Numbered from the stretch's first letter, positions 14,389 through 47,002 are shown. The stretch is DNA of 51,643 bases from an uncultured Candidatus Bathyarchaeia archaeon (GCA_964477645.1 CAYZEP010000001.1:1-51643), one strand, 5' to 3'. Notes: generated from the sequence alone by a model not told the origin. Made by a program: numbers and translations.

Positions 14389-15396
14389 ATGTCTTCAGAA
14401 AACGCCATAGAAGTCTCGAACTTAACAAAGTATTACGGTAAATTGCTGGCAGTTGATCATATCAATTTTGAGGTCAAGCGCAAAGAGCTATTTGGATTGC
14501 TCGGACCTAACGGCGCTGGAAAGACAACAACCATCCGTATGATTTGTGGTATGCTCAGACCTACGGGTGGATCAGTTGTTGTAGCTGGCTTTGATGTGTC
14601 TAAAAAACCAGAGGAGGCCAAACGAAGAATCGGTTTAGTCCCTGACATCTCAAATCTGTTCGGGGAATTAAGCGCTAGAGTAAACTTAGAGTTCATGGGA
14701 AAATTGTATGGTTTAGACAAAAAGACACGCCGAGAACGAATTGACCAAGTTCTTGAACTTTTCCAATTAAAGGACCGAGGAAACGACCTAATCAAGTACT
14801 ACAGTAAGGGCATGCATCGGCGTTTAACCATAGCGGCAGCCCTCATCCACCAGCCCGAAATCCTAGTTATGGACGAACCAACCAGTGGCTTAGACGCCCA
14901 AACAGCAAGGTTAGTTAGAGAAATTATCATTAACCTCAACAGGGAAGGCAGAACCGTGCTCTTAACCACCCATCAGATAGACGAAGCAGACCGACTCTGT
15001 CAACGTGTGGGCATAATTGACCACGGTCGCGTAATCGCATTAAACACGCCAGCAGAACTAAAAGACAGCACAGAGGGCACACGCGCCCTAGAAATCAAAG
15101 TCCTAAACGGTGTAGATCAGCAACGATGGCTCCCCATCCTCAGTGGGGCTGAAGGTGTGGACCAAGTCTTCTTGGCAGAGGGAAAGGTAAGAGTATTGTC
15201 TAAGGATTTGCCCCAAGTAATTCCAACAATTGTGAATCTCATTAACAAACATGGTGGAAAAATTGAGAACATCTCAGTAGCGCAACCTACCTTAGAGGAC
15301 GCTTTTATAAATCTGACGGGTAGAAGCATTCGAGAGGAATCTATGTCGAAGGAAGATTATCTCAGGAGAAGATTATCTCGGAGTGGAATGAGATGA
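14389..15396 (+). CDS. ABC transporter ATP-binding protein (ABC-2 exporter type)
   Basis: Walker A GPNGAGKTT, signature YSKGMHRRL, Walker B ILVMDEPTSGLD, H-loop TTHQ. Confidence 0.9.
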   Translation: MSSENAIEVSNLTKYYGKLLAVDHINFEVKRKELFGLLGPNGAGKTTTIRMICGMLRPTGGSVVVAGFDVSKKPEEAKRRIGLVPDISNLFGELSARVNLEFMGKLYGLDKKTRRERIDQVLELFQLKDRGNDLIKYYSKGMHRRLTIAAALIHQPEILVMDEPTSGLDAQTARLVREIIINLNREGRTVLLTTHQIDEADRLCQRVGIIDHGRVIALNTPAELKDSTEGTRALEIKVLNGVDQQRWLPILSGAEGVDQVFLAEGKVRVLSKDLPQVIPTIVNLINKHGGKIENISVAQPTLEDAFINLTGRSIREESMSKEDYLRRRLSRSGMR

Positions 15397-16142
15397 AAAC
15401 ATTCAAACCTCTGATGCATTCTATCTACATCGCTGAAAACGACTTGCGGCAATCGTTCAAGTCAGTACGCCATGTGGTGTGGAGTCTTCTCTTCCCAATA
15501 TTCATGATGTTAACCTTTAGTTTTAGATATGGTGCTGTTGGACTAGACCCTGCGTTTATGAATTTTCTCATACCGGGCATTGTAGCCATGACTGCCATGT
15601 TCGGAAGCATCAATGAAACCATGAGTATAGTTTGGGACAAATCTTTAGGGGTGTTTGACCGTATTTTGGCAGCTCCAGTTTCATCTACTTCTATTATAGT
15701 TGGGAAGACTATGGCAGGTGCGGTCATGGGCGTTATAAGCGCTCTTGTTTTGCTCGTTATAGGCGAGTTGTTCTTCAGTGTTTCATTTATCAACATCGGT
15801 ATTGTTCTCATGATTATCGTGCTTGCAAGTTTTTCTTTCACAGGTATTGGAACAATAATATCTGGCTTAGCGTCTGAACCAAGGGAAGCTATGATGCTCT
15901 CGAATCTTCTTAGGTTTCCAATGATGTTCCTAGGCGGCGTTTTCTTTCCTATTGAGACGATGCCGATGCCGCTTCCTTACGTGGCTAGAGCTCTTCCGCT
16001 TACATACGCAACAGAAGCATTAAGGGCTGCTATGACCGGAAACATGAGTGTGGTTTTATTTGATGCACTTGTGCTTTTAGTTTATACAATAAGTACAATG
16101 GTAGTCGGTTCAAAGATATTGATGAGAGTCATGACGAGATGA
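15393..16142 (+). CDS. ABC-2 family transporter permease
   Basis: 249 aa with about 6 hydrophobic helices. A 4-nt overlap (ATGA) with the ATPase gene suggests translational coupling. The last 26 nt lie inside the left 68-bp direct repeat. Confidence 0.8.
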   Translation: MKTFKPLMHSIYIAENDLRQSFKSVRHVVWSLLFPIFMMLTFSFRYGAVGLDPAFMNFLIPGIVAMTAMFGSINETMSIVWDKSLGVFDRILAAPVSSTSIIVGKTMAGAVMGVISALVLLVIGELFFSVSFINIGIVLMIIVLASFSFTGIGTIISGLASEPREAMMLSNLLRFPMMFLGGVFFPIETMPMPLPYVARALPLTYATEALRAAMTGNMSVVLFDALVLLVYTISTMVVGSKILMRVMTR

Positions 16143-16184
16143 ACTTACTGTTATGCAGAGCATGGTTAGACGTTATTGCTTTCG
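16117..16184. repeat. left copy of a perfect 68-bp direct repeat (putative attL)
   Basis: tattgatgagagtcatgacgagatgaacttactgttatgcagagcatggttagacgttattgctttcg is identical at 16117-16184 and 19620-19687. Identity breaks at both ends (a/c before, t/c after). Confidence 0.9.
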
Positions 16185-16277: not shown

Positions 16278-18587
16278 ATGAGAAGGTTAATTTTTCTCCT
16301 CATCATTTTGATTGTCTTGTATTTGGTTTCTTTTTTTGTTTCAGGATACAGTCAATCTTCTGAGCACACGACTTTCAGAAATACTAAGATTGAAGGCTTG
16401 AGTGTCTACTTCTTCTATGGTGAAGGATGCCCGCATTGTACTAAAGTCAAACCTTTCATCGATGAGATGGAGAGATCCTATGGTTTGAATATTGAGCGGT
16501 TTGAGGTTTACGGAAATAGAGCGAATATGAAGCTAATCCAAGAATATTTTGAGAGATACAACGTTCCAGTCAATAATAGGGGAGTCCCGGCTGTTTTTGT
16601 GTCAGATTCTTATCTTGTCGGTGACGTGGATATTCTCAATGGTCTTGAAAATCTTGTATCAAACTCAGTGACCGCTGATTCCGAAACGGCTCAGTTGTCG
16701 AATGAGGGTAACAGCGAAGAATGTACTTCTAATGGTTACGATTGTTTATCATTCTTGACTATTACTGCTGCTGCCTTGGTTGATTCTGTTAATCCTTGTT
16801 CTATTGCTATTCTTTTCTTTTTGATGGCTGGTTTGCTTTTGCTTCGGAATCGCAAAAGGGCTTTGAGAGTTGGTTTGGCCTTTGCTTTATCCGTCTTTCT
16901 TGCAAACTTGTTGTTTGGATTAGGAATATTTTCAACGCTTTCTGTGAGCGGCTTTTCTTCTATTTTTGATACTGTTGCTGGTTTTGTAGCTATTTTGACT
17001 GGTATCTTGCTGGTTAAGGATTGTTTTTTCCATGGGAAAGTGATCGCTATGGAAGTACCTCGTTCTTTGCAGCCTTATTTGAAACATAGACTGAGTGAGG
17101 CTTTTTTTGGAAAATCTTCAAGAGTTTTGGGAGCCTTTCTTATAGGTTTTCTTGTCACCTTATTTGAGATTCCTTGTACTGGAGGACCATACTTTTTTGT
17201 TTTGGCTAGGATGGCTGATGATGCAACTAGAATGCAGACTATTCCAATATTGCTGTATTACAATTTGATTTTTGTTATGCCCTTGATTCTAATCTCGACT
17301 CTGCTCTATTTCGGCTCGATTCAGGTTGAGAGAGTAAGAGAATGGAAAGACAGGAACAAGCAGTTTTTAAATTTGGTTAGGGGTTTGCCGCTGATTGCGG
17401 TGGGTTTCGTAACTATTTCAACGTCTCTAGTGATTCAATGGATGAGTGTAGCATTAAGCGTTTATAGAGCAGCTTTCATTCCCTTGATTGGGCCCGTTGC
17501 TTCTTACATAGTTTATCAAATATTTTCAAAGTCAAAATACAGGGTTAAAGCTTTGAAATATCTAACCGTTGTTGGAATAGGCAGTACTCTCTTTTTGGCT
17601 GCGATATCAAATGCTCAAACAAGTTTTCTAGGCAACCCCGGAGAAACGGGATCAGAAACTAAGAGTTATCAAGTAACGGGTGAGGCTACTACTGCAACGA
17701 CTATTCAACCTTACACAGACTGTGAAGCTGAAGGTGGAAGATGTATGATGGGTTCAATGGGATGTAGCATTGCGTGCAAACGAATGAATTATGCTATGGG
17801 GGTTTGTGAACTTGGTCTTCCTAGTTTAGGCTATTATCCGGGCTGTGGTGAGAGAGATTGCTGTTGTTTTTGCGTGGGTGAAAAAGAAAATTGTACAGAT
17901 GTAGATAAAGATGGTTATGCTATAGAGGGTGGGAATTGTGGACTAATAGACTGTAATGATGCTGATGCTAGTGTTCATCCAGGAGCAGTTGAAATTTGCA
18001 ATGGAATTGATGATGATTGTGATGAACAAGTAGATGAAGGTGATATTTGTGTAGGTTGTGTAAAAGTAAAAGTTGTAAATGAAACTGATGATCCAGTTCA
18101 AGCTGATGTTATTTTAGACTGTCTCACAGCTATTGGTTCTACTAATTATGCTGGATCTGCAGTGAGCTGTAATCATGGGAAAATACCTGGATTTTATTAT
18201 GTAGATGCTTTTATTGGTTTTCCTTGTTATGGTGAATCATATATCAACATAGACGAATATGGCACTGGGTATGCAGAAATTGGATCTTCAGATTGTGTAT
18301 GGTACGATGAAAATTGTATGGGAGGAAGTTCACTTACTACCACAATAACAACCACCTCTTCAACAACTACAACTGTTTCCAGTGACGGTGGTAGCCTAAA
18401 TACAACTACATCCACAACCTCTTCAACAACTACGACAATTTCTTGTCAGTGTACTGAATGGAAGAATACCTTCGAATGTTGTAATATAGATAGAAAATGG
18501 CGGAGTAAAGGTAATTTATTCGAAAGAACTTGTAACCCAAGGGGTTGTGATATAGAAAAAAGATGTAAGACTTCTAAAATTCTTTGA
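16278..18587 (+). CDS. multi-domain membrane protein: signal anchor, thioredoxin-like domain (CPHC), DsbD/CcdA-like transmembrane thiol-disulfide transporter, extra TM helices, cysteine-rich extracellular domain with Ser/Thr-rich stalks
   Basis: 769 aa. YFFYGEGCPHCTKV is thioredoxin/glutaredoxin-like. LVDSVNPCSIAILFF and LFEIPCTGGPYFF carry the two conserved membrane Cys of the DsbD_2/CcdA family. DCNDADASVHPGAVEICNGIDDDCDEQVDEG matches the MopE-type putative metal-binding repeat. There are roughly 29 Cys after residue 480, and two TSSTTTT linkers. GGAGGAAGGGG precedes the ATG. Confidence 0.7.
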   Translation: MRRLIFLLIILIVLYLVSFFVSGYSQSSEHTTFRNTKIEGLSVYFFYGEGCPHCTKVKPFIDEMERSYGLNIERFEVYGNRANMKLIQEYFERYNVPVNNRGVPAVFVSDSYLVGDVDILNGLENLVSNSVTADSETAQLSNEGNSEECTSNGYDCLSFLTITAAALVDSVNPCSIAILFFLMAGLLLLRNRKRALRVGLAFALSVFLANLLFGLGIFSTLSVSGFSSIFDTVAGFVAILTGILLVKDCFFHGKVIAMEVPRSLQPYLKHRLSEAFFGKSSRVLGAFLIGFLVTLFEIPCTGGPYFFVLARMADDATRMQTIPILLYYNLIFVMPLILISTLLYFGSIQVERVREWKDRNKQFLNLVRGLPLIAVGFVTISTSLVIQWMSVALSVYRAAFIPLIGPVASYIVYQIFSKSKYRVKALKYLTVVGIGSTLFLAAISNAQTSFLGNPGETGSETKSYQVTGEATTATTIQPYTDCEAEGGRCMMGSMGCSIACKRMNYAMGVCELGLPSLGYYPGCGERDCCCFCVGEKENCTDVDKDGYAIEGGNCGLIDCNDADASVHPGAVEICNGIDDDCDEQVDEGDICVGCVKVKVVNETDDPVQADVILDCLTAIGSTNYAGSAVSCNHGKIPGFYYVDAFIGFPCYGESYINIDEYGTGYAEIGSSDCVWYDENCMGGSSLTTTITTTSSTTTTVSSDGGSLNTTTSTTSSTTTTISCQCTEWKNTFECCNIDRKWRSKGNLFERTCNPRGCDIEKRCKTSKIL

Positions 18588-18736: not shown

Positions 18737-19444
18737 ATGGGCTCAAAAATAATCGTTAATCCAGAAGCACTATCGAAATCGTACATTCCCGAAAAACTTG
18801 TGAATAGAGAAAAAGAATTCGATCAACTTTCAAACATTATAGGCGTATCTGACACATTCTGTTATGGTCCGACTGGTTCGGGAAAGACAATCCTCATTAA
18901 ACATGTTATTGAAAATCACAACTCAACAAAAAAAGGAAGAGCAAATTACGTAGACTGTTCTCTCTATCAGACTACCAACGCAATATTCCACGAAATCCTA
19001 ACCGCTTTAAACAGCATTGTGGTAAGCAAAAGCAATTATGAGTTAACAAAAAGGCTAAATTCAAAAATAAAGCATCTCGAGAGTTCATTGACAATTTGTT
19101 TAGATCATTTTGAACATTTAAAAGAAATCGAAACTCTGAACAGAATTTTAAGCCTTGGTCTCAACTTGGTAATAATTGCAGAGACATATGATTCTTACAG
19201 AAAACTGAACCAGCAAATCAAAGCAAACATAACAAGTTTGATAGAAATTCCAAGTTATACAGCAGATCAAGTCTTCGATATACTTATGGACAGAGCTGAA
19301 GAAGCACTTGAAAAGTACACCTACTCAGAAGTTACAATAAGAAAAATCGCAGAGGCAAGTTCTGGTAACGTCACACTTGCTTTGAATCTACTAAAGTCAC
19401 CACACTTTAAACCCAAAAGGAAAACTTTTTCCAAATTTCAATAA
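18737..19444 (+). pseudogene. Orc1/Cdc6-like AAA+ initiator paralog, truncated and degenerate
   Basis: 235 aa. It is colinear with the N-terminal two-thirds of Orc1/Cdc6: YIPEKLVNREKEF, Walker A GPTGSGKT, and a GNVTLALNLLK equivalent of GDARRALDLLR. Walker B is degenerate (ICLDHFEH). The frame stops right after the lid motif, and no winged-helix domain follows. Confidence 0.55.
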
Positions 19445-19619
19445 ACAATTCGCAATTCTTTCGCATCCAACATTTCTAGATGCCTTCTGTCTACATCCAC
19501 CTTGCTGGAGAAGATATCGATGAAGCACAATGCATTTTGAGTGGAATGACTAAGGTCAAAAAAGAAGATGAACGACTCAAACCTCAAAACTCAAAAACGA
19601 CTCAAAACGACTCTCTCTC

Positions 19620-19687
19620 TATTGATGAGAGTCATGACGAGATGAACTTACTGTTATGCAGAGCATGGTTAGACGTTATTGCTTTCG
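19620..19687. repeat. right copy of the perfect 68-bp direct repeat (putative attR)
   Basis: Identical to 16117-16184. It contains the last 19 nt, including the stop, of the reverse-strand GNAT gene. Confidence 0.9.
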
Positions 19688-20097
19688 CGCTTGCTGAAAT
19701 ATATTATGTCACGGTGTTCAACATAGCCGCATTCTCTGAACAGCTCCTTTGATGCAACGTTGTAATCTTCGATTAAGGCACAGAAAATTCTGATATCATG
19801 TTTTCTAAACACCTTTTCAGATTCAACAATCAATGCTTTAGCAATTCCACGCTGCCTAAAATCTGAGTCAACAGCTAAGCGATTTATCCAACCCTTTCGC
19901 ATATCACAGCTTAGAATAACCGTTCCGACAAGGCGATTATCCTCAAAGGCTCCGAGAAAAAATTCAGGGCTTGCATCCATTTGTGCGGATATTGCCTCTT
20001 TGCTGTCCCTTCCTTTCGGTTTGAACGGCAACCTAGCCCTAGACCAGAGTTGGATCATTTCTTTGAAATCTTTAATCGTTAATCTTCGAATTTCCAT
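19669..20097 (-). CDS. GNAT-family N-acetyltransferase
   Basis: 142 aa. VDSDFRQRGIAKALIVESEKVF (RxxGxA acetyl-CoA motif) and ELFRECGY. Confidence 0.75.
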   Translation of the reverse strand: MEIRRLTIKDFKEMIQLWSRARLPFKPKGRDSKEAISAQMDASPEFFLGAFEDNRLVGTVILSCDMRKGWINRLAVDSDFRQRGIAKALIVESEKVFRKHDIRIFCALIEDYNVASKELFRECGYVEHRDIIYFSKRESNNV

Positions 20098-30289: not shown

Positions 30290-33200
30290 TTAGGCAAAGT
30301 CTGTTAAGCTGATTTGTCGAGGCTTTTTACCTTCAAACAGTGCATCTATTTCCTCTTTCATAAGCAGAATTCTTTGAGCATAATACTGCGGTAACCCATA
30401 CTTTTCGATCAGATGCTGCGCCGCCTCCAAGTATTTTTCAATGCCGCCACGATAAACGGTCAATGATAATTGTCCACCACATGAAGGACATTTGCCACGG
30501 AGAGGTAAACGGCGAAAACGCTTGTTGCACGATTTACATCTAAAACTCTGCGTGGAGAAAGCCCGCAGATTTCCAGCAATGTCCCGAATGAAGTGCGTAG
30601 TTAAAACTTTTAAGGCTACCTTTTCAGCGTCCACAGCTTTGATCTTCTCAGCCAATTCAAGTTGACTGTTCAGCTTTTCAATCATTGTTCTGAAACGTTT
30701 GTATGCACTCTCAGGATTTCCCATGTTGATGTTTGAGACAGGCGTCGTGAATTTGAAGCCTTCATACTGTGCTTGTGTGTTGAGCCGATGCTCAATTATG
30801 TCTATTAGGCGACTAACATGCTTAGATTCCACAGTCTCCCATGTTTTCTCATAAAACTCAAGCGGATAAGCATCGGCAACATCGACATCATGCGCTTGCC
30901 TTTGCACTTCTTGAGGATTAACAACCGAGATTAGAAGTAGCGGGGCGTCCATTATTCCACCTATTTGTGCTGGCAAGTATTCACGGGAAAAGTTAAGCAA
31001 CGTATCTAACGCAAGCATCAACGCATCTTCGTCACCATCACAATCTCTCCGCTTGGCTGAATGCCAAATTGGATGCGCATAACAAACGTTAAGATTTGTG
31101 AAGCCAATGATACGCCCCAAAATGCCCACAGAGGTATGAGGAGCTAAGCCAACAATTAAATGACCGATAAGGTCTTCTGGCTGCTTCACATTGTAATAGG
31201 CTGAAAGCCCATAGATTTTAGTTAAGAGTTCATCCATGAAATTTGCAACTTGTACGAAGTACTCTGCACATTTTATGGGAATAACAATGTCTTGAAGTTT
31301 TAGTTCACACATCTGGTTTGGATCCGCTAGTGGCATACCAGAAATGTCATGTGTATAACTAAGCTTGCCAAGCTTCTCAATCGCAACTCCAATTTCGAAA
31401 GGCTTAAAGTGAGTTAATGGAGCATTTGTTATGTCGAAACGGATTGTTCCATCCTTGTAGACTGATAAATCATACTTTGCGCGCAGAACCCCCTTTTCCA
31501 TGATCTCAGGAGTCTTCGTCTCATTCGTCAAGCCTTTGACACCCTTCAAAACTTTAGGGATAGAAACGCCCAAACGGCTACATGCGCCCTCAAGCAATTC
31601 CTTCAAGTTGACAATCTGTTTTTGATATGCCCTCGTAGGCACTTTGCAGACTGGACACTCATTTTCCTTAAAGCTTTTCCCGCATCTGAGACAAGTTTTC
31701 TCAAGGATCGTTTCGGAACCGCAAGCAGGACATTTGACCCTATGAGTGAACGTTTTGCATATTGGACATTTGCGTTTAACAACTTCTACAAAAACGGGCT
31801 CTTTTTTTGCTGCACCAACAATGTCTCTATGAGAACCCCCGGCTAGGCCAACAGGGAAAAGGACATGAACGAGAGGTTTCATCTCACGCCTTTTTGCTTT
31901 TTCTGGTCTTCCCATCCGTGCACCTACGAGAGTTGGAGCCTTTTCTTTAATTTGTACGCCGGAGAGCAAACTAATCGCTTCTAGAATAGAGGTGGTAGAG
32001 GGAAAGTTCACATCTTTGGTGAGTTCGCAGCCGAGGCAGAATGCAAATGTTTGTGCGTCTTCGCCTTCAATAATAATTTTCTCATTAGAAACTTTGTGCG
32101 GTAAGCACATTGCTTCCAAAGAATGTTTAATATTCGTATTCATTTCACCAGTAATTTGATGGACATCATCGCCATCGCGTTGTATTTCGGAACTGAGAAG
32201 CCATTTTCTTAATAGTTTAAGTTCCTTAATTGAAGTGAGGTCCATCCAGAAAAATGTAAAAAGTGGATGAAGAGGCGTATGCAATGCTAGCGATAAGGCG
32301 AGCGCTTCTTTAAAGCAAGGCTTGTTGGTAAATGGGCTCTCCAAAAAAGCTTTCAACCTTTCCAAAGGAATCTTAACGGTTGTCGCGACGTTTGCAAAGT
32401 CGCCATTAAACTTTTCTGTAATAGCTTTTCGTACGTCTTCAGTCCACCACTCTTCAACATACCCGGAAGGCGCAAGAGGCTTGCTATTGTAGAGAAAGTC
32501 CCCGAAACTAATCAAAATATCGCCTAAAAACAGAATCTTCTCAATTTTATCTTTTATCTCATTGAAATTTTCAACAGTGACTCGAACAACCGAACCGTCC
32601 TTCAACTGGACAATGGGCAGTTCCACACTATTAACCGGAACGACTATGCCGCCTTTTCCTGGAAGCTCCAAACGTACTTGCGTGCCTGCTGCTAGAAAAC
32701 CTTGAAGCACAAGCATGGTCGCTGGATGAACCCCAACAGCAGCCAAGCCTGTGTTTCGTGCCCTACCGTATCTTAGACGAAAGCCACCACGTCTGGATGG
32801 GAAAGAAAAGATTGGACGCCCAGCGATAACGTCATCCATGAATCCAGCGGATTTTCTCTCAGATTCTTTACGAATTTCCTTAAGCCAGTCCCAACCTTGA
32901 AACTTCAACTTTTCAATAATAGTCAGAACTTTGGGAGCACGCCCAACTATGCCATCATTCACAACTCTAAGCGCCCCACCCCTCACACGGTTGGTCTCTA
33001 TCCGAGGAAGATTGCGGAAAGAAGAAACTTCAACTGGATCAGATTCCGTACCCGTTACTTCCACAGGAAGCCACTCAAGCGCCTTTCGCAACTCTTCATC
33101 AGAAATATGATATTGGAAGCGCGATACAGAACGCTCGTAAAGCCTCATTTCTTCAATGAAGCGAGAGATTTCTTCCTCCGTAGGCTTGTAACGGTCAAGC

Positions 33201-33706
33201 CCAAGTAGTCGCCGCACAAAATCTCCAACAACCAGCGTCAAAGCTTGATCTGTCCCACCAGCAGACCGTATTGGACCCGCAAAATAAATAGCAAGATAAC
33301 GTGTACGATCACGATTTGTCTTAATTTTTACTTTAGCTACCCCTTGTATCGGTGCTGCGGTAAGCCCCTCAGTAAAAATTGCAAGTGCAGTGCGTATGGC
33401 TTGCTCCGCCACGGCTTCAGGCTCCATATGCCCAAATCTGCCATAAACAATTTCTTCCACAATTTTAAAAGCTAGTTCTTCCCTTGGAAGTTTCGCGCTT
33501 AGTTCTCTGATGCTTTCTGCGACGCCTTTTGGTCCTACAAGACCTTCCACAAGGTCGGCTAAATCCTTTGCAACCTTACATTCGGGTTTTAACGTAGGAT
33601 CATGTCCCTTTTCTCTGGCTTTTTCACTTATGGTGTATAGTTGCTCAAGGTTGCTTTCCAAATTTTTTACGTATTGCCGATACGCATCGCTCATTTGGTT
33701 ATTCAA
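30290..33706 (-). CDS. dp2: DNA polymerase II (PolD) large catalytic subunit DP2
   Basis: 1138 aa. N-terminal AREKGHDPTLKPE..AKDLADLVEGLVGP and several CxxC zinc modules (CPICK...CPACG, CLRCG...CPVCK, CKSCN...CPSCG). The conserved double-psi-barrel regions are colinear with no intein-sized insertion. Confidence 0.95.
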   Translation of the reverse strand: MNNQMSDAYRQYVKNLESNLEQLYTISEKAREKGHDPTLKPECKVAKDLADLVEGLVGPKGVAESIRELSAKLPREELAFKIVEEIVYGRFGHMEPEAVAEQAIRTALAIFTEGLTAAPIQGVAKVKIKTNRDRTRYLAIYFAGPIRSAGGTDQALTLVVGDFVRRLLGLDRYKPTEEEISRFIEEMRLYERSVSRFQYHISDEELRKALEWLPVEVTGTESDPVEVSSFRNLPRIETNRVRGGALRVVNDGIVGRAPKVLTIIEKLKFQGWDWLKEIRKESERKSAGFMDDVIAGRPIFSFPSRRGGFRLRYGRARNTGLAAVGVHPATMLVLQGFLAAGTQVRLELPGKGGIVVPVNSVELPIVQLKDGSVVRVTVENFNEIKDKIEKILFLGDILISFGDFLYNSKPLAPSGYVEEWWTEDVRKAITEKFNGDFANVATTVKIPLERLKAFLESPFTNKPCFKEALALSLALHTPLHPLFTFFWMDLTSIKELKLLRKWLLSSEIQRDGDDVHQITGEMNTNIKHSLEAMCLPHKVSNEKIIIEGEDAQTFAFCLGCELTKDVNFPSTTSILEAISLLSGVQIKEKAPTLVGARMGRPEKAKRREMKPLVHVLFPVGLAGGSHRDIVGAAKKEPVFVEVVKRKCPICKTFTHRVKCPACGSETILEKTCLRCGKSFKENECPVCKVPTRAYQKQIVNLKELLEGACSRLGVSIPKVLKGVKGLTNETKTPEIMEKGVLRAKYDLSVYKDGTIRFDITNAPLTHFKPFEIGVAIEKLGKLSYTHDISGMPLADPNQMCELKLQDIVIPIKCAEYFVQVANFMDELLTKIYGLSAYYNVKQPEDLIGHLIVGLAPHTSVGILGRIIGFTNLNVCYAHPIWHSAKRRDCDGDEDALMLALDTLLNFSREYLPAQIGGIMDAPLLLISVVNPQEVQRQAHDVDVADAYPLEFYEKTWETVESKHVSRLIDIIEHRLNTQAQYEGFKFTTPVSNINMGNPESAYKRFRTMIEKLNSQLELAEKIKAVDAEKVALKVLTTHFIRDIAGNLRAFSTQSFRCKSCNKRFRRLPLRGKCPSCGGQLSLTVYRGGIEKYLEAAQHLIEKYGLPQYYAQRILLMKEEIDALFEGKKPRQISLTDFA

Positions 33707-43540: not shown

Positions 43541-43684
43541 ATCCCGTTTACGTAGCTCTTTGCTATAGTATGCAGGCTTTTCTTTTAGGATTCTTGTGTG
43601 CGAGATTTACTTTTTTGTATGACAGAGCTTATTTTTTATGTCAAAAAGATGAGGCGTTACACTTTGGCTATAAAGAGGAATAAA

Positions 43685-44935
43685 ATGAACGACAATAGCA
43701 TACTTGACAATGTGTTCGAAAAATTCGTAAGTAACGCAAAGATCTATAGGGATAGAGAAGTTCTTCGGCATGATTATTTACCTGACAGACTGCCACATCG
43801 AGAAGAGCAGATTACACAGCTCGGGGAAACAGTAGCTCCCGTCTTAAAGGGTGCAAGAAACTCCAACATATTTATTTATGGAAAAACTGGGACAGGCAAG
43901 ACAGCTGTAACAAAATATGTGCTGAGTCACCTCGAGGTTAAAGCAAAGGAGTTTAACGCGCCTGTTAAGTTTTGTTACGTGAACTGCCGCATAGCCGGGT
44001 CAGAATATCGTGTCTTTGCCAGTTTATGCCAAAGTATAGGCGCGCCTGTTCCTTTCACCGGCTTGTCCGTTGGGGAAGTTTTTGATAGATTTAGAAAAGG
44101 TTTGGATGCTTCTGGAATTATTCTTATCATAGTTTTGGATGAGATTGATGCGTTAATAAAACCAAACAGTGACACTCTCCTTTATGAATTAACGAGAATA
44201 AACGAGAACTTAGGTAAGAGCAAAGTATCTCTCGTTGGCATATCTAACGATCTTCGGCTGAAGGAATTTCTTGACCCGCGTGTTTTGAGTTCTCTTAGCG
44301 AGGAAGAGATTGTTTTTAGGCCTTATGACGCCAGCGAATTAGGGAACATTCTCCTTGAACGTGCAAAATCGGCGTTTTACGATGGTGCGCTGTCCTCTAG
44401 TGCTCTGAGTCTTTGCGCTGCTTTGGCTGCTGCAGAGCATGGTGATGCTAGGCGAGCTTTGGACTTGCTGCGTGTTGCAGGTGAAGTTGCTGAACGAAGC
44501 GGTGCAAGTGTTGTGGTTGAAGAACACGTCCGAGAAGCTGAAAAGCATATTGAACACAATCGCATCACTGAAGCGCTTAAAGATCTAACTCTACATTCAA
44601 AACTTGTAGTTTTAAGCGTCTATTACTTGAATAAAACGGGTGTTCACCGCGCTATCACCGGCGAGATTTACGAAGTTTACAGTGAACTATGTGGGGAACT
44701 GAGACTTATGCCTTTAACGCAACGGCGTTTAGGCACATTGGTGAATGAACTTGATTCCATGGGACTTTTGAATGCCAAGGTCATAAGCATGGGAAGATAT
44801 GGACGCACAAAAAAGATTAGGTTGGAGGTAGCACGTACTCTTGTTAGAGATATTTTCGCAGACGACGATAGACTTGGATGCTTGAGTGACTATGAGCCGA
44901 AATGTCTTTCAAAACGTGCCAACAGTAGGAGTTGA
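43685..44935 (+). CDS. orc1: Orc1/Cdc6 replication initiator
   Basis: LRHDYLPDRLPHREEQ, Walker A YGKTGTGKT, Walker B IVLDEIDAL, sensor/lid GDARRALDLLRVAGEVAE and a C-terminal winged helix. The ATG at 43685 was chosen over the longer track ORF (43598). Confidence 0.9.
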   Translation: MNDNSILDNVFEKFVSNAKIYRDREVLRHDYLPDRLPHREEQITQLGETVAPVLKGARNSNIFIYGKTGTGKTAVTKYVLSHLEVKAKEFNAPVKFCYVNCRIAGSEYRVFASLCQSIGAPVPFTGLSVGEVFDRFRKGLDASGIILIIVLDEIDALIKPNSDTLLYELTRINENLGKSKVSLVGISNDLRLKEFLDPRVLSSLSEEEIVFRPYDASELGNILLERAKSAFYDGALSSSALSLCAALAAAEHGDARRALDLLRVAGEVAERSGASVVVEEHVREAEKHIEHNRITEALKDLTLHSKLVVLSVYYLNKTGVHRAITGEIYEVYSELCGELRLMPLTQRRLGTLVNELDSMGLLNAKVISMGRYGRTKKIRLEVARTLVRDIFADDDRLGCLSDYEPKCLSKRANSRS

Positions 44936-45539
44936 GGACGGAAGTTTCCAAAAAGGTATAACACGAAAGACTGTTCTTGCGGCTGTTTTGCTCCGGGGAG
45001 TAACGATTGAAAGCGTAAAAATCACAGGAATAACTGTTGACGGTCTAGACGCAACAAGAAAGCTCGCTGAAATCTTAAGTGAATTGGAGTTTGCCGCTCT
45101 TTTGCTCGCTGGCGTATCCTTCGCTGGCTTCAACGTAATTGACCCCTCAATAATTCATGGAAAATTTGAGAAACCAGTCATAATCATATCACAGACAAAA
45201 CCCGACAACAAAGCGGTGAAACAAGCCCTCCAACGACATTTTGAAGACTGGGAAATCCGCTGGGGAGTATTTGAGAAATTGGGCGCCATTCATAAAATTA
45301 CTGTTTTAACTGGTGAACCACCAGTATATGTTGAAACTGTAGGCGTGGGCGTTAAATGGGCTGGTAACCTTATTCGAGCTTTGTCCGTTTGTAGCAGAGT
45401 TCCCGAACCGATTCGCATCGCACGATTAATTGCACGTGGACTCTCTCAACCAAAAGGAAGAACTGTAACTTCTAATGTTTGGAGGTTCACTACAGGAACT
45501 TTTCCAGGCGTTGGAACTAGCCCAAGCCTTCTCATATAA
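44886..45539 (+). CDS. UPF0215/DUF99-family protein (endonuclease V-like fold)
   Basis: VGVEDGSF near the N-terminus, TVDGLDAT and AGFNVID resemble the DUF99 family. The start is uncertain (ATG 44886/44892 or GTG 44916), and every option overlaps the orc1 3' end. Confidence 0.5.
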   Translation: MTMSRNVFQNVPTVGVEDGSFQKGITRKTVLAAVLLRGVTIESVKITGITVDGLDATRKLAEILSELEFAALLLAGVSFAGFNVIDPSIIHGKFEKPVIIISQTKPDNKAVKQALQRHFEDWEIRWGVFEKLGAIHKITVLTGEPPVYVETVGVGVKWAGNLIRALSVCSRVPEPIRIARLIARGLSQPKGRTVTSNVWRFTTGTFPGVGTSPSLLI

Positions 45540-47002
45540 TCTGTTTGTTCCTGCCATCCGCCTGAGTTTACAACTAAAACACCACGGTAATTAGTATATC
45601 CTAGCACGTGCACATGACCAGCGTGAAAAATGTCTGGAACATGTTCAATAACCAAAAAGTCTCGGTTTTCAGGCGACAACATCGTCTTTCCACCATATAC
45701 CGGAGCCAAGTGGCGACTTTGCAACAGCAATTTCATTGCTTTTTCAGGGTGATCGTGATCCGCGTCCGGGATCGTTGAGATAACATCATCCAAACTACGA
45801 CCATGATATAGCAGCACTTCTACGTTGTGAAGGCTTAGAAGGCACGGGTTTCCAAGAGAGTAGACTTTTCTTGATTCTTGAAGTGTTTGCAAGAAGGCAT
45901 TTGATATTGCAGGTTGAGGTAGAGCTTTTCTGGGTGCGTCATGGTTTCCTGGGGTAATTATCACTTCTATATGATCAGGAATTTGTTCAATGTATTTGGC
46001 AGCAAGCCTGTATTGTTTATGAACATCTTTGACTGCTAATTCTTTTATCTGATTGGGATAAATTCCTACCCCGTCGACAATATCGCCCGCTATCAGAACG
46101 TATTTGACGTGACTTGCTATTTCCCTCATTTTTTCGTTTCCATATTTGCCGTTAAGCCATAAGGTGAAGCGGTTGAATGCTTCTCTTTGGAATTTTGTGC
46201 TTCCTACATGCATATCTGAGGTGAGCACTGCATAAACTGGTAAAGAAGCTTTGTGTTGAGGCTTTTGAGCTATGTCTGGTAGGGTTATTTCTTCAGCTAT
46301 TAAGAGGTTGCTTCTTGCCTTTACAACACTTAAACAGATAACTTGATCAAGCAAGAGCAATCGCGCTTTTTTCATTAATTCTTGCGGAGCGTTTTGTGGC
46401 ACGAGCACTGTGGCATTTGCATGCAGATCCTCAACAGTTAATATTATCCTCTGCTTTGATTCCCTTCTCTCCGTTATCATGCCGATTATTTTGAGTTTCA
46501 TATTCGCTGGAGCTTTTAGGGCGTCAATTATTGACGCTGCAGTTTTAACGTCTATTCTTTGCCTTAGCAGTTTTTCTGTTCGCTTGAATCTGTCTCGAAA
46601 ATATTCCAAATAATCTTCGATTGTTCCGCTAGAACTTAGCTTCGTGCTTGGATCTTCGATTATGTTGATGCTTGCTTCATTTTCTCTTGCATATGGACGA
46701 AATTCTTTTTTTCCTTCTGCTATTTGCGGTTCTGGCAATGTTTGAAGGGGCTCCTCGGATGGGTGAGTAAGAAATTCTTCAGTTGGTTCAGACTCCTTCA
46801 TCAGTTGTTCCAAGAAGCTTCTGTCAATGAATAGGGGCTTTTCTTTTAGGCTTTCTATTTTTTGTATTGCCTTGCTGATGATTTCTGTGGGGTCTTCTGT
46901 TGCGGCTACAATGTTCAGGAATTCGAAGGCTTCCTTGTTAAGTTGGTACCCTGCCGCAATTGTTGTCTCTACAGCCTTTTGCAATTTTTCAGGTGCACTC
47001 AT
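45446..47002 (-). CDS. dp1: DNA polymerase II (PolD) small subunit DP1 (Mre11-like phosphoesterase)
   Basis: 518 aa. An OB-fold region is followed by calcineurin-like motifs: SDMHVGS, IAGDIVDGVG, PGNHD, YHG and HAGHVH. Confidence 0.9.
   Translation of the reverse strand: MSAPEKLQKAVETTIAAGYQLNKEAFEFLNIVAATEDPTEIISKAIQKIESLKEKPLFIDRSFLEQLMKESEPTEEFLTHPSEEPLQTLPEPQIAEGKKEFRPYARENEASINIIEDPSTKLSSSGTIEDYLEYFRDRFKRTEKLLRQRIDVKTAASIIDALKAPANMKLKIIGMITERRESKQRIILTVEDLHANATVLVPQNAPQELMKKARLLLLDQVICLSVVKARSNLLIAEEITLPDIAQKPQHKASLPVYAVLTSDMHVGSTKFQREAFNRFTLWLNGKYGNEKMREIASHVKYVLIAGDIVDGVGIYPNQIKELAVKDVHKQYRLAAKYIEQIPDHIEVIITPGNHDAPRKALPQPAISNAFLQTLQESRKVYSLGNPCLLSLHNVEVLLYHGRSLDDVISTIPDADHDHPEKAMKLLLQSRHLAPVYGGKTMLSPENRDFLVIEHVPDIFHAGHVHVLGYTNYRGVLVVNSGGWQEQTDYMRRLGLVPTPGKVPVVNLQTLEVTVLPFG

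Follow-up and report, generated by a model that had tools for sequence, protein, structure and literature searches.

A Bathyarchaeia cell-surface protein whose membrane anchor may double as a transmembrane thiol-disulfide relay

CcdA, a membrane electron transporter, is a stand-alone membrane domain: its six-helix core has both ends outside the cell, and helices 1 and 4 each contribute a mid-membrane cysteine that follows a proline, within the motifs SPCxLP and TPCxGP. In mycobacterial DipZ-type proteins, a CcdA-like core is fused to an extracytoplasmic thioredoxin (Trx)-like domain and to a further, non-redox outer domain, while in the oxidative pathway VKOR-Trx fusions and the DsbA/DsbB pair couple a membrane redox enzyme to an outer CxxC domain. 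DsbD and ScsB consist of an N-terminal immunoglobulin-like or other alpha domain, an eight-helix beta domain and a C-terminal Trx-like gamma domain, and the characterised DsbD, CcdA and ScsB proteins all carry electrons outward (PMC3322552, which also mentions a Mycobacterium homologue). Here we describe a gene at 16278..18587 (+) in a 51,643-nucleotide stretch of DNA from an uncultured Candidatus Bathyarchaeia archaeon (GCA_964477645.1 CAYZEP010000001.1:1-51643; hereafter the window, meaning this whole stretch). The architecture that it encodes is a variant of the DsbD/CcdA-type relay within a very large, unstudied family. To an earlier, sequence-only reading of this DNA, no described example of such a fusion was known; the protein does have fused relatives, as long forms occur in Bathyarchaeia and related archaea next to a very large family of short forms. 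With moderate confidence, based on sequence comparisons and structural models, we propose that the product is a Bathyarchaeia cell-surface protein whose membrane anchor doubles as a complete transmembrane thiol-disulfide relay.

The open reading frame (ORF) runs uninterrupted for 2310 nt, with a GGAGG motif ~9 nt 5' of its ATG, and encodes 769 amino acids (aa), 36 of them cysteines. The host of the window belongs to the Bathyarchaeia, the PolD small subunit being 74-82% identical to named Bathyarchaeia proteins. The ORF and the parts of its N-terminal module are the following, with the type of evidence in brackets (AF2, AlphaFold2).

16278..18587 (+), intact 769-aa ORF: signal anchor, Trx-fold domain, CcdA-like two-Cys core, two extra helices and Cys-rich surface region (ORF, hydropathy)
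16278..16346 (+), aa 1-23, signal peptide or signal anchor composed of MRR and a hydrophobic stretch, N-terminus inside the cell (hydropathy, model, charge)
16389..16676 (+), predicted extracytoplasmic thioredoxin/glutaredoxin-fold domain, aa 38-133 (invariance, profile against PDB, AF2, Foldseek)
16677..16748 (+), low-confidence acidic linker, aa 134-157, with semi-conserved C149 and C156 by the membrane (alignment, model)
16749..17453 (+), six-helix CcdA/DsbD-superfamily-like core, aa 158-392 (sub-threshold profiles, invariance, helix breaks, 5vkv match)
17463..17612 (+), extra helical hairpin, helices 7-8, aa 396-445 (hydropathy, model, profile end positions)

Set beside the described systems, the protein resembles CcdA (solved structure 5vkv) in its six-helix core with both ends outside and in the position of its two cysteines, each after a proline in helices 1 and 4, but its motifs are NPCS and PCTGGP, and it adds to the membrane domain an N-terminal Trx domain, two C-terminal helices and a surface region. 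With DsbD and ScsB it shares a two-Cys membrane domain joined covalently to an extracytoplasmic Trx-like domain, so that the relay lies in one polypeptide; in contrast to them, it carries the Trx domain on the N-terminal side, lacks an alpha domain and finishes in a variable surface region. In DipZ, as generally described, the core comes first and the Trx domain after it, the reverse of the order found here, and DipZ has no Cys-rich stalked display region and differs in lineage and motifs. The CPHC motif and the Val before the cis-Pro are as in DsbA, but the membrane domain resembles neither DsbB nor VKOR and has none of the features of a quinone site. The Bathyarchaeia long forms add a feature undescribed for DsbD, CcdA and ScsB, in which the putative relay would itself anchor a surface protein.

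The family to which this protein belongs joins an outer CPHC Trx-fold domain to a CcdA-like two-Cys membrane core. A whole-protein search retrieved 35 other proteins conserved over the first ~450 residues (40-65% identity), with C-terminal parts unrelated to each other, and a profile search of 1.84 billion representatives retrieved 12,035 proteins with E <= 1e-3, of which 2,890 had E <= 1e-30, these ~12,000 members being representative clusters at 50% identity. Most of the 150 best matches are short forms of ~350-460 aa that stop after helix 6, some with two or three Trx domains, whereas ~40-45 of the 150 are long forms (491-2987 aa) whose match extends over the two extra helices; profile matches end accordingly at ~389 in short forms and at ~455 in long forms. 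Helices 7-8 are thus found in long forms only, where they bring the chain back outside, the SKSKYRVK loop between them lying on the cytoplasmic side. A scan of GTDB species genomes gave >560 loci, from which the best 80 were kept and ORF lengths were checked in 39. Among these 39, long forms were only found in five Bathyarchaeia loci, and the checked short forms belonged to DPANN archaea, bacteria of the candidate phyla radiation (CPR), Methanosarcinales and a few others. Two Bathyarchaeia metagenome-assembled genomes (MAGs) each hold two long-form paralogues, and the NCBI names of two long forms place them in Methanomethylicota and 'Thaumarchaeota' MAGs. The short forms (355-446 aa; DPANN, CPR, Methanosarcinales) have the same signal anchor, Trx domain, two-Cys core and invariant residues at 31-47% identity, but they end after helix 6, have no surface region and are located in NifX-like/MinD-like operons. 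No viral relatives were found in an IMG/VR scan, no curated model describing the family was found, and a literature search (SfLAP/DUF2910, archaeal CcdA fusions, DPANN Cys-rich proteins, NifX-like clusters) returned no description of it.

The short-form clusters are co-directional and display a recurrent order, in which NifX-like genes (Nitro_FeMo-Co, 1-3 copies) are followed by genes for MinD/NUBPL-like 4Fe-4S P-loop ATPases (1-2 copies), with the family gene at the 3' end. This order was observed in 44 of 79 loci (L013-L087, e.g. L013, L051, L071, L085) from DPANN and CPR, and no literature on such a cluster was found. ZIP transporters (10 loci), DUF7343 membrane winged helix-turn-helix proteins (9 loci) and ArsP_1 half-permeases (~9 loci) also occur near short forms. 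In two Methanoregula loci (L073 5165-5590, L079 6082-6504), the Trx domain is a separate ORF of ~140 aa before the membrane domain, the module being either split there or interrupted by a frameshift.

The breadth of the family also bears on the integrity of the window gene, which could in principle result from misassembly or a frameshift, or be a defunct gene on an element in decay. The surrounding element is indeed degraded, with a truncated Cdc6-like gene and ~50-90 integrase codons left. Nevertheless, the frame is open over its 2310 nt, the identical 769-aa protein was recovered in an independent assembly of SRR8652712, every invariant residue is intact, and the two extra helices together with the junction are kept in at least 45 homologues, so that we consider such an origin extremely improbable. 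No fewer than 50 long forms share the same junction between module and surface region, which shows the fusion to be genuine and bears out the earlier description of a single-polypeptide fusion.

Several lines of evidence agree on the topology. Hydropathy identifies a signal anchor (4-22) and eight helices, i.e., the nine hydrophobic segments that had been counted by eye, and the AF2 helices match the layout deduced from hydropathy and the positive-inside rule. Each of the short loops 190-199, 252-282, 349-362 and 417-424 holds 4-6 Lys/Arg, while segments 23-161 and 444-769 are acidic. When averaged over the window protein and 15 long-form homologues, the net charge of the four inner loops is +2 to +5, that of the short outer loops ~0 to +1 and that of the Trx segment -9. 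From hydropathy and the loop charge pattern, the Trx domain and the C-terminal region are thus both assigned to the cell exterior, in line with the first proposal, and the six-helix core has both ends outside, which is the topology of CcdA. In addition, long-form homologues carry 9-20 sequons for N-glycosylation in their C-terminal regions vs 1-4 in their N-terminal modules, and one of them ends in a PEF-CTERM-like sorting signal.

The Trx-fold domain is the best supported part of the module. CPHC occupies residues 51-54 (codons at nt 16428-16439) and is nearly universal across the family; the cis-Pro is P104. C51, C54, P104, P173-C174 and C300-T301 are unchanged throughout 29 sequences, some of them bacterial and 20-25% identical, as well as throughout 46 long forms; the residues invariant across alignments of 21 to 46 sequences are F46, C51, C54, P104, P173, C174, G199, G216, G242, C300, T301 and Y328. 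Searched against PDB sequences, the family profile matched 8t4c (1e-5), Vibrio DsbA (4e-5) and Grx1 (3e-4), the DsbA matches being restricted to the CxxC and cis-Pro regions; the single-sequence match to Pfam Glutaredoxin stayed under its cutoff (20.1 vs 22.9). The AF2 model shows a minimal beta-alpha-beta-alpha-beta-beta-alpha fold (strands 42-47, 71-76, 105-108 and 111-114 plus three helices) with a predicted local distance difference test score (pLDDT) of 81-87, and the helical insert of DsbA is not present in this ~95-aa domain. Foldseek retrieved thioredoxins and glutaredoxins at probability 1.0, with target template modelling (TM) scores of ~0.6. The CxxC at the start of helix 1, the cis-Pro loop and the order of the fold are those of the thioredoxin/glutaredoxin class, in agreement with the CPHC thioredoxin-fold domain read from the sequence.

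The relationships of the membrane core are more difficult to establish. Motif NPCS (172-175) places P173-C174 in core helix 1 (C174 codon 16797-16799), and IPCTGGP (298-304) places P299-C300 in helix 4 (C300 codon 17175-17177). Both helices are ~30 residues long with the Pro-Cys at their middle, and in both AF2 models the helix breaks exactly there (159-170 and 173-188; 283-296 and 298-312). A mid-membrane Cys beside a Pro in helices 1 and 4 is the arrangement that characterises DsbD and CcdA. Pfam DsbD_TM (PF02683) aligned over profile positions 11-205 of 219 with an E-value of 5e-5, and NCBIfam DsbD and ArsG gave sub-threshold matches to the window protein as well as to several short forms; in the latter, matches to the DsbD beta domain reached E 8e-9, still far under the cutoff. 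SfLAP, which we take to belong to the same Pfam clan as DsbD_TM, scored about equally for the membrane core. Because Foldseek searches with the whole module were swamped by the Trx domain, the membrane part was re-modelled alone (residues 155-450, pLDDT 76), and its only high-probability match was CcdA 5vkv (0.87; rank two, 21% identity over 233 columns).

Several results weigh against a CcdA/DsbD assignment. DsbD_TM scored 20.1-23.1 bits vs a cutoff of 27.1, NCBIfam DsbD 21 bits vs 330, and Pfam DsbD_2 (PF13386), the family originally named for this core, matched only 1 of 21 family members (E 7e-4). CcdA/DsbD chains were absent among the 60 best PDB sequence matches of the family profile, the 5vkv fold match is weak (TM-scores 0.34/0.42, E 0.28), and hhalign found no internal-repeat signal between helices 1-3 and 4-6, although such repeats are often undetectable in sequence. 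Single-sequence and profile searches of the membrane domain against PDB sequences likewise retrieved Trx-fold matches only. The earlier assignment thus draws support from the two-Cys mid-helix layout, from the repeated sub-threshold DsbD and ArsG matches and from a weak fold match, but passes no curated threshold, and we read the membrane core as a probable distant member of the DsbD/CcdA superfamily lying outside every curated family. A further pair, C149/C156 (window 16722-16745), occurs on the outer side before core helix 1 in many, but not all, long forms, and might either serve as a third pair of the relay or form a structural disulfide.

In the relay that we propose, C174 and C300 would, as in CcdA/DsbD, undergo disulfide exchange both with a dithiol/disulfide partner in the cytoplasm and with CPHC on the outer side, and the outer Trx domain would thereby be held in a redox state suited to forming, shuffling or repairing disulfides. 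The first client, in cis, would be the 29-Cys region that emerges beside the Trx domain, and further exported proteins would probably be clients in trans. Since every characterised member of the superfamily moves electrons outward, the flow is by analogy most likely outward here too, which would make the protein a reductase or isomerase. Two further observations go against this proposal: CPHC, the motif of E. coli DsbA, forms together with Val-cisPro the oxidising pattern of DsbA-type proteins, which speaks against a reductive direction, and the short-form operons hold NifX-like and Fe-S MinD-like proteins without known Dsb clients.

The first of these observations leads to the idea of the same relay working in reverse, as a disulfide-forming oxidase for anaerobes without DsbB, VKOR or quinones, in which CPHC would oxidise exported cysteines and electrons would pass inward via the two membrane cysteines to a cytoplasmic disulfide acceptor. 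The near-universal presence of the E. coli DsbA motif in the family, with Val before the cis-Pro, agrees with this direction, as do the DsbA chains among the best profile matches, the concentration of the family in DPANN, CPR and Bathyarchaeia, and the ~14 disulfides that the window protein would need to have made outside the cell. Nevertheless, the Trx domain is a minimal glutaredoxin-like fold of ~95 aa without the DsbA insert, the electron acceptor is only putative, the C-terminal Cys counts have no even-number bias, and the characterised DsbD, CcdA and ScsB all send electrons the other way (PMC3322552); we therefore regard an oxidase as unlikely. We would also give a low probability to a broader idea, that the Trx and two-Cys module is the missing extracytoplasmic disulfide machinery of anaerobic, quinone-poor DPANN, CPR and Bathyarchaeia, acting as a self-contained oxidase/isomerase with disulfide exchange across the membrane and, in Bathyarchaeia, as a 'self-folding' anchor for interchangeable cassettes. 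Under this idea, the cytoplasmic Fe-S partners encoded in the short-form operons could take part, and the cassettes would be recombined onto the anchor and sometimes moved between genomes by small integrative elements.

The gene neighbourhoods of the short forms, together with the sub-threshold profiles, could also point to the handling of metals, metalloids or cofactors, the membrane part being a LysE-superfamily transporter whose cysteines bind a thiophilic ligand and the CxxC domain an outer site of metal binding or hand-over, as in MerP/MerT, with the MopE-type repeat and the Cys-rich region of the surface part binding metal. Matches to ArsG (E 1e-8) and SfLAP are equal in quality to those to DsbD, and the association with Nitro_FeMo-Co proteins and Fe-S MinD/NUBPL-like ATPases (44/79 loci), ZIP transporters (10) and ArsP-type half-permeases (~9) fits such a role, as does the presence of PF11617, the 'putative metal-binding motif'. 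Yet the invariant cis-Pro and the glutaredoxin-like fold are typical of thiol-disulfide exchange, CcdA is the only credible fold match, and the long forms, the window one included, have no metal-related neighbours. PF11617 is, to our knowledge, a Cys-rich structural repeat, and we know of no demonstration that the motif binds metal. Together, these points make metal handling quite improbable, and we retain the thiol-disulfide relay as the preferred reading.

The surface region of the window protein is ~320 aa long, acidic, and falls into six parts, namely a linker (aa 446-480) and the following five.

17718..17882 (+), membrane-proximal 10-Cys block, aa 481-535 (local BLAST match to P0045)
17883..18053 (+), acidic MopE-type Cys repeat region, aa 536-592, with PF11617 at 558-587 (Pfam)
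18054..18323 (+), 6-Cys domain, aa 593-682 (common to the C-termini of P0002 and P0004)
18324..18443 (+), Ser/Thr stalk, aa 683-722, 30 of 40 residues being Ser/Thr (composition, repeats)
18444..18584 (+), basic 7-Cys C-terminal tail, aa 723-769 (match to P0044)

The count of 29 cysteines in the last 290 residues given by the sequence-only reading is exact (residues 480-769), and corresponds to 9.2% of the outer 316 aa, vs 1.40% in the other ORFs of the window. Its MopE-type repeat is also borne out, as PF11617 passes the Pfam gathering score at residues 558-587 (43.9 bits vs 27) and the region has a weak PDB match to MopE 2vov, as is the exact 17-nt repeat ACCTCTTCAACAACTAC at 18354-18370 and 18417-18433, which lies within two 47-nt units that are 77% identical. 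In contrast, the label 'knottin/defensin-like' for residues 481-535 finds no Pfam, NCBIfam or PDB sequence match, and nothing significant was retrieved when the C-terminal region was searched against PDB sequences. With the C-terminal 315 aa as query, the ranking brought up MopE-repeat proteins only, and local BLAST then revealed three other recurring modules. The 10-Cys block has a counterpart with 52.6% identity in P0045 (locus L095 2106-3221), a stand-alone secreted protein, and since the P0045 copy directly precedes a C-terminal transmembrane anchor, the block is membrane-adjacent in both proteins. Long form P0002 ends in a stretch that is 46.9% identical to the MopE repeat and 6-Cys domain (aa 537-673), and the stalk and tail have their counterpart at the C-terminus of P0044, a stand-alone CARDB protein (48% identity). 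The 6-Cys domain may be beta-rich, a character suggested solely by faint CarboxypepD_reg matches in relatives (P0014). As each module recurs elsewhere, the C-terminal region is a mosaic of surface-protein modules, of which the 10-Cys block and the Thr stalk with its Cys-rich tail look reusable.

Other long forms end in different domains, among them NosD/beta-helix, CARDB, cohesin, dockerin, TSP3, laminin-G and PKD-like domains. Four of them (P0002, P0003, P0014, P0019) carry cohesin or dockerin, and a separate cohesin gene (L093 5942-6550) adjoins the dockerin-bearing P0014, which hints at cellulosome-like surface assemblies anchored through the N-terminal module in Bathyarchaeia. Secreted proteins rich in N-glycosylation sequons, and related to each other by eye, are encoded beside the long form P0013 (L007 2505-3362) and beside P0045 (L095 3-1988).

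This diversity must be considered when interpreting the cysteines of the window protein as clients of its own module. Across 53 long forms, the C-terminal Cys content lies between 0.65% and 11.8% (median 2.27% vs the window background of 1.40%); the window protein (9.2%) is among the Cys-richest, and ~ten members exceed 4.5%. Given this range, Cys-richness is not a defining feature of the fusion, and the earlier suggestion of a redox module fused to its own disulfide-rich client fits the window protein and ~ten relatives, but not the long forms overall. The ordinary Cys content of many long forms, down to 0.65%, speaks against the proposal, and their C-terminal Cys counts show no even-number bias (32/53, p = 0.17), an uninformative result. 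The two parts may not be coupled at all, the N-terminal module being a conserved redox-active anchor that serves the whole cell and the C-terminal part an independent, fast-exchanged adhesin or scaffold cassette rather than a client. Besides the diversity of C-terminal domains and the fall of their Cys content to background, this possibility is favoured by the recurrence of the window protein's C-terminal modules in stand-alone secreted proteins without a redox module, and by paralogues with different C-termini within a single MAG. On the other hand, the median Cys content lies above background, with the ~ten Cys-rich members far above it, and a module of ~450 aa with eight helices, a signal anchor and four invariant cysteines seems excessive for a plain anchor. 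The absence of coupling is in any case compatible with the redox mechanism, as it only denies action in cis; we take it seriously while considering it doubtful, and retain the relay with clients in cis and in trans.

The question to which these proteins are relevant is how disulfides are formed or maintained in the numerous large, Cys-rich surface proteins of anaerobic archaea and of DPANN and CPR organisms, whose cells are small. Provided that the relay works, the family would offer a directly testable candidate for extracytoplasmic redox control in Bathyarchaeia, DPANN and CPR, and a compact one-polypeptide module that might aid the production of disulfide-rich proteins.

Concerning its genomic setting, the gene lies within a mobile insertion, as had been recognised from the sequence. 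Two exact 68-nt direct repeats enclose 3435 bp that contain, besides the family gene, a truncated Cdc6-like gene and an integrase remnant.

16117..16184 (no strand), left 68-nt direct repeat, attL-like, including 26 nt from the 3' end of the ABC-2 permease gene 15393..16142 (identical copies)
18737..19444 (+), Cdc6/Orc1-like AAA+ gene, truncated (AAA_22, Cdc6 lid)
19411..19752 (+), tyrosine integrase C-terminal remnant (…SVYIHLAGED…), reading into the right repeat (integrase matches)
19620..19687 (no strand), right 68-nt direct repeat, attR-like, overlapping the 3' end of the convergent GNAT gene 19669..20097 (-) (identical copies)

The 3' ends of both convergent flanking genes, the ABC-2 permease and the GNAT gene, lie inside the 68-nt repeat, and the GC content of the interior (0.372) is the lowest among 3435-bp stretches of the window (median 0.422). 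The Cdc6-like protein has 235 aa vs ~320 aa in relatives, and the integrase is reduced to its last ~50-90 codons, with 35% identity to residues 266-311 of the L004 integrase (E 6e-4) and 80-88% identity over 35 aa to the integrases of L103, L104, L115, L120 and L121. Direct repeats, a replication gene and an integrase, as expected of an integrative element, are therefore all present, and since the integrase only survives as a remnant, the element is defective. Relatives of the Cdc6-like gene were found in 35 metagenome loci, with an integrase match nearby in 21 of them, mostly full-length. The idea that the Trx-membrane gene is a hallmark of such elements was rejected, as 0 of these 35 related loci carry it; the window and L004 are the only places where it adjoins a Cdc6-like gene, of which L007 keeps a remnant. 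The gene is thus cargo, not a core gene, of a decayed 3.4-kb integrative element. The idea that short 3-5 kb contigs with homologues are complete small plasmids was unsupported as well: a Logan contig breaks at the 68-nt repeat, and the neighbours on other contigs are unrelated.

More generally, these loci outline a family of small integrative elements in Bathyarchaeia-type metagenomes (window 18737-19752; L096-L130, L004), which pair a gene for a Cdc6/Orc1-like protein of ~320 aa with a tyrosine integrase gene (~395 aa) in convergent orientation, often with a 101-aa ORF and with variable cargo. The integrase remnant of the window copy is oriented opposite to this usual arrangement. Several such elements adjoin an apparent host orc1/cdc6 gene. 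In the window, the host orc1/cdc6 gene adjoins that of the PolD small subunit, with the PolD large subunit 12 kb off (43598-44935 (+), 45446-47002 (-) and 30290-33706 (-)), and these genes probably mark a chromosomal replication-origin region.

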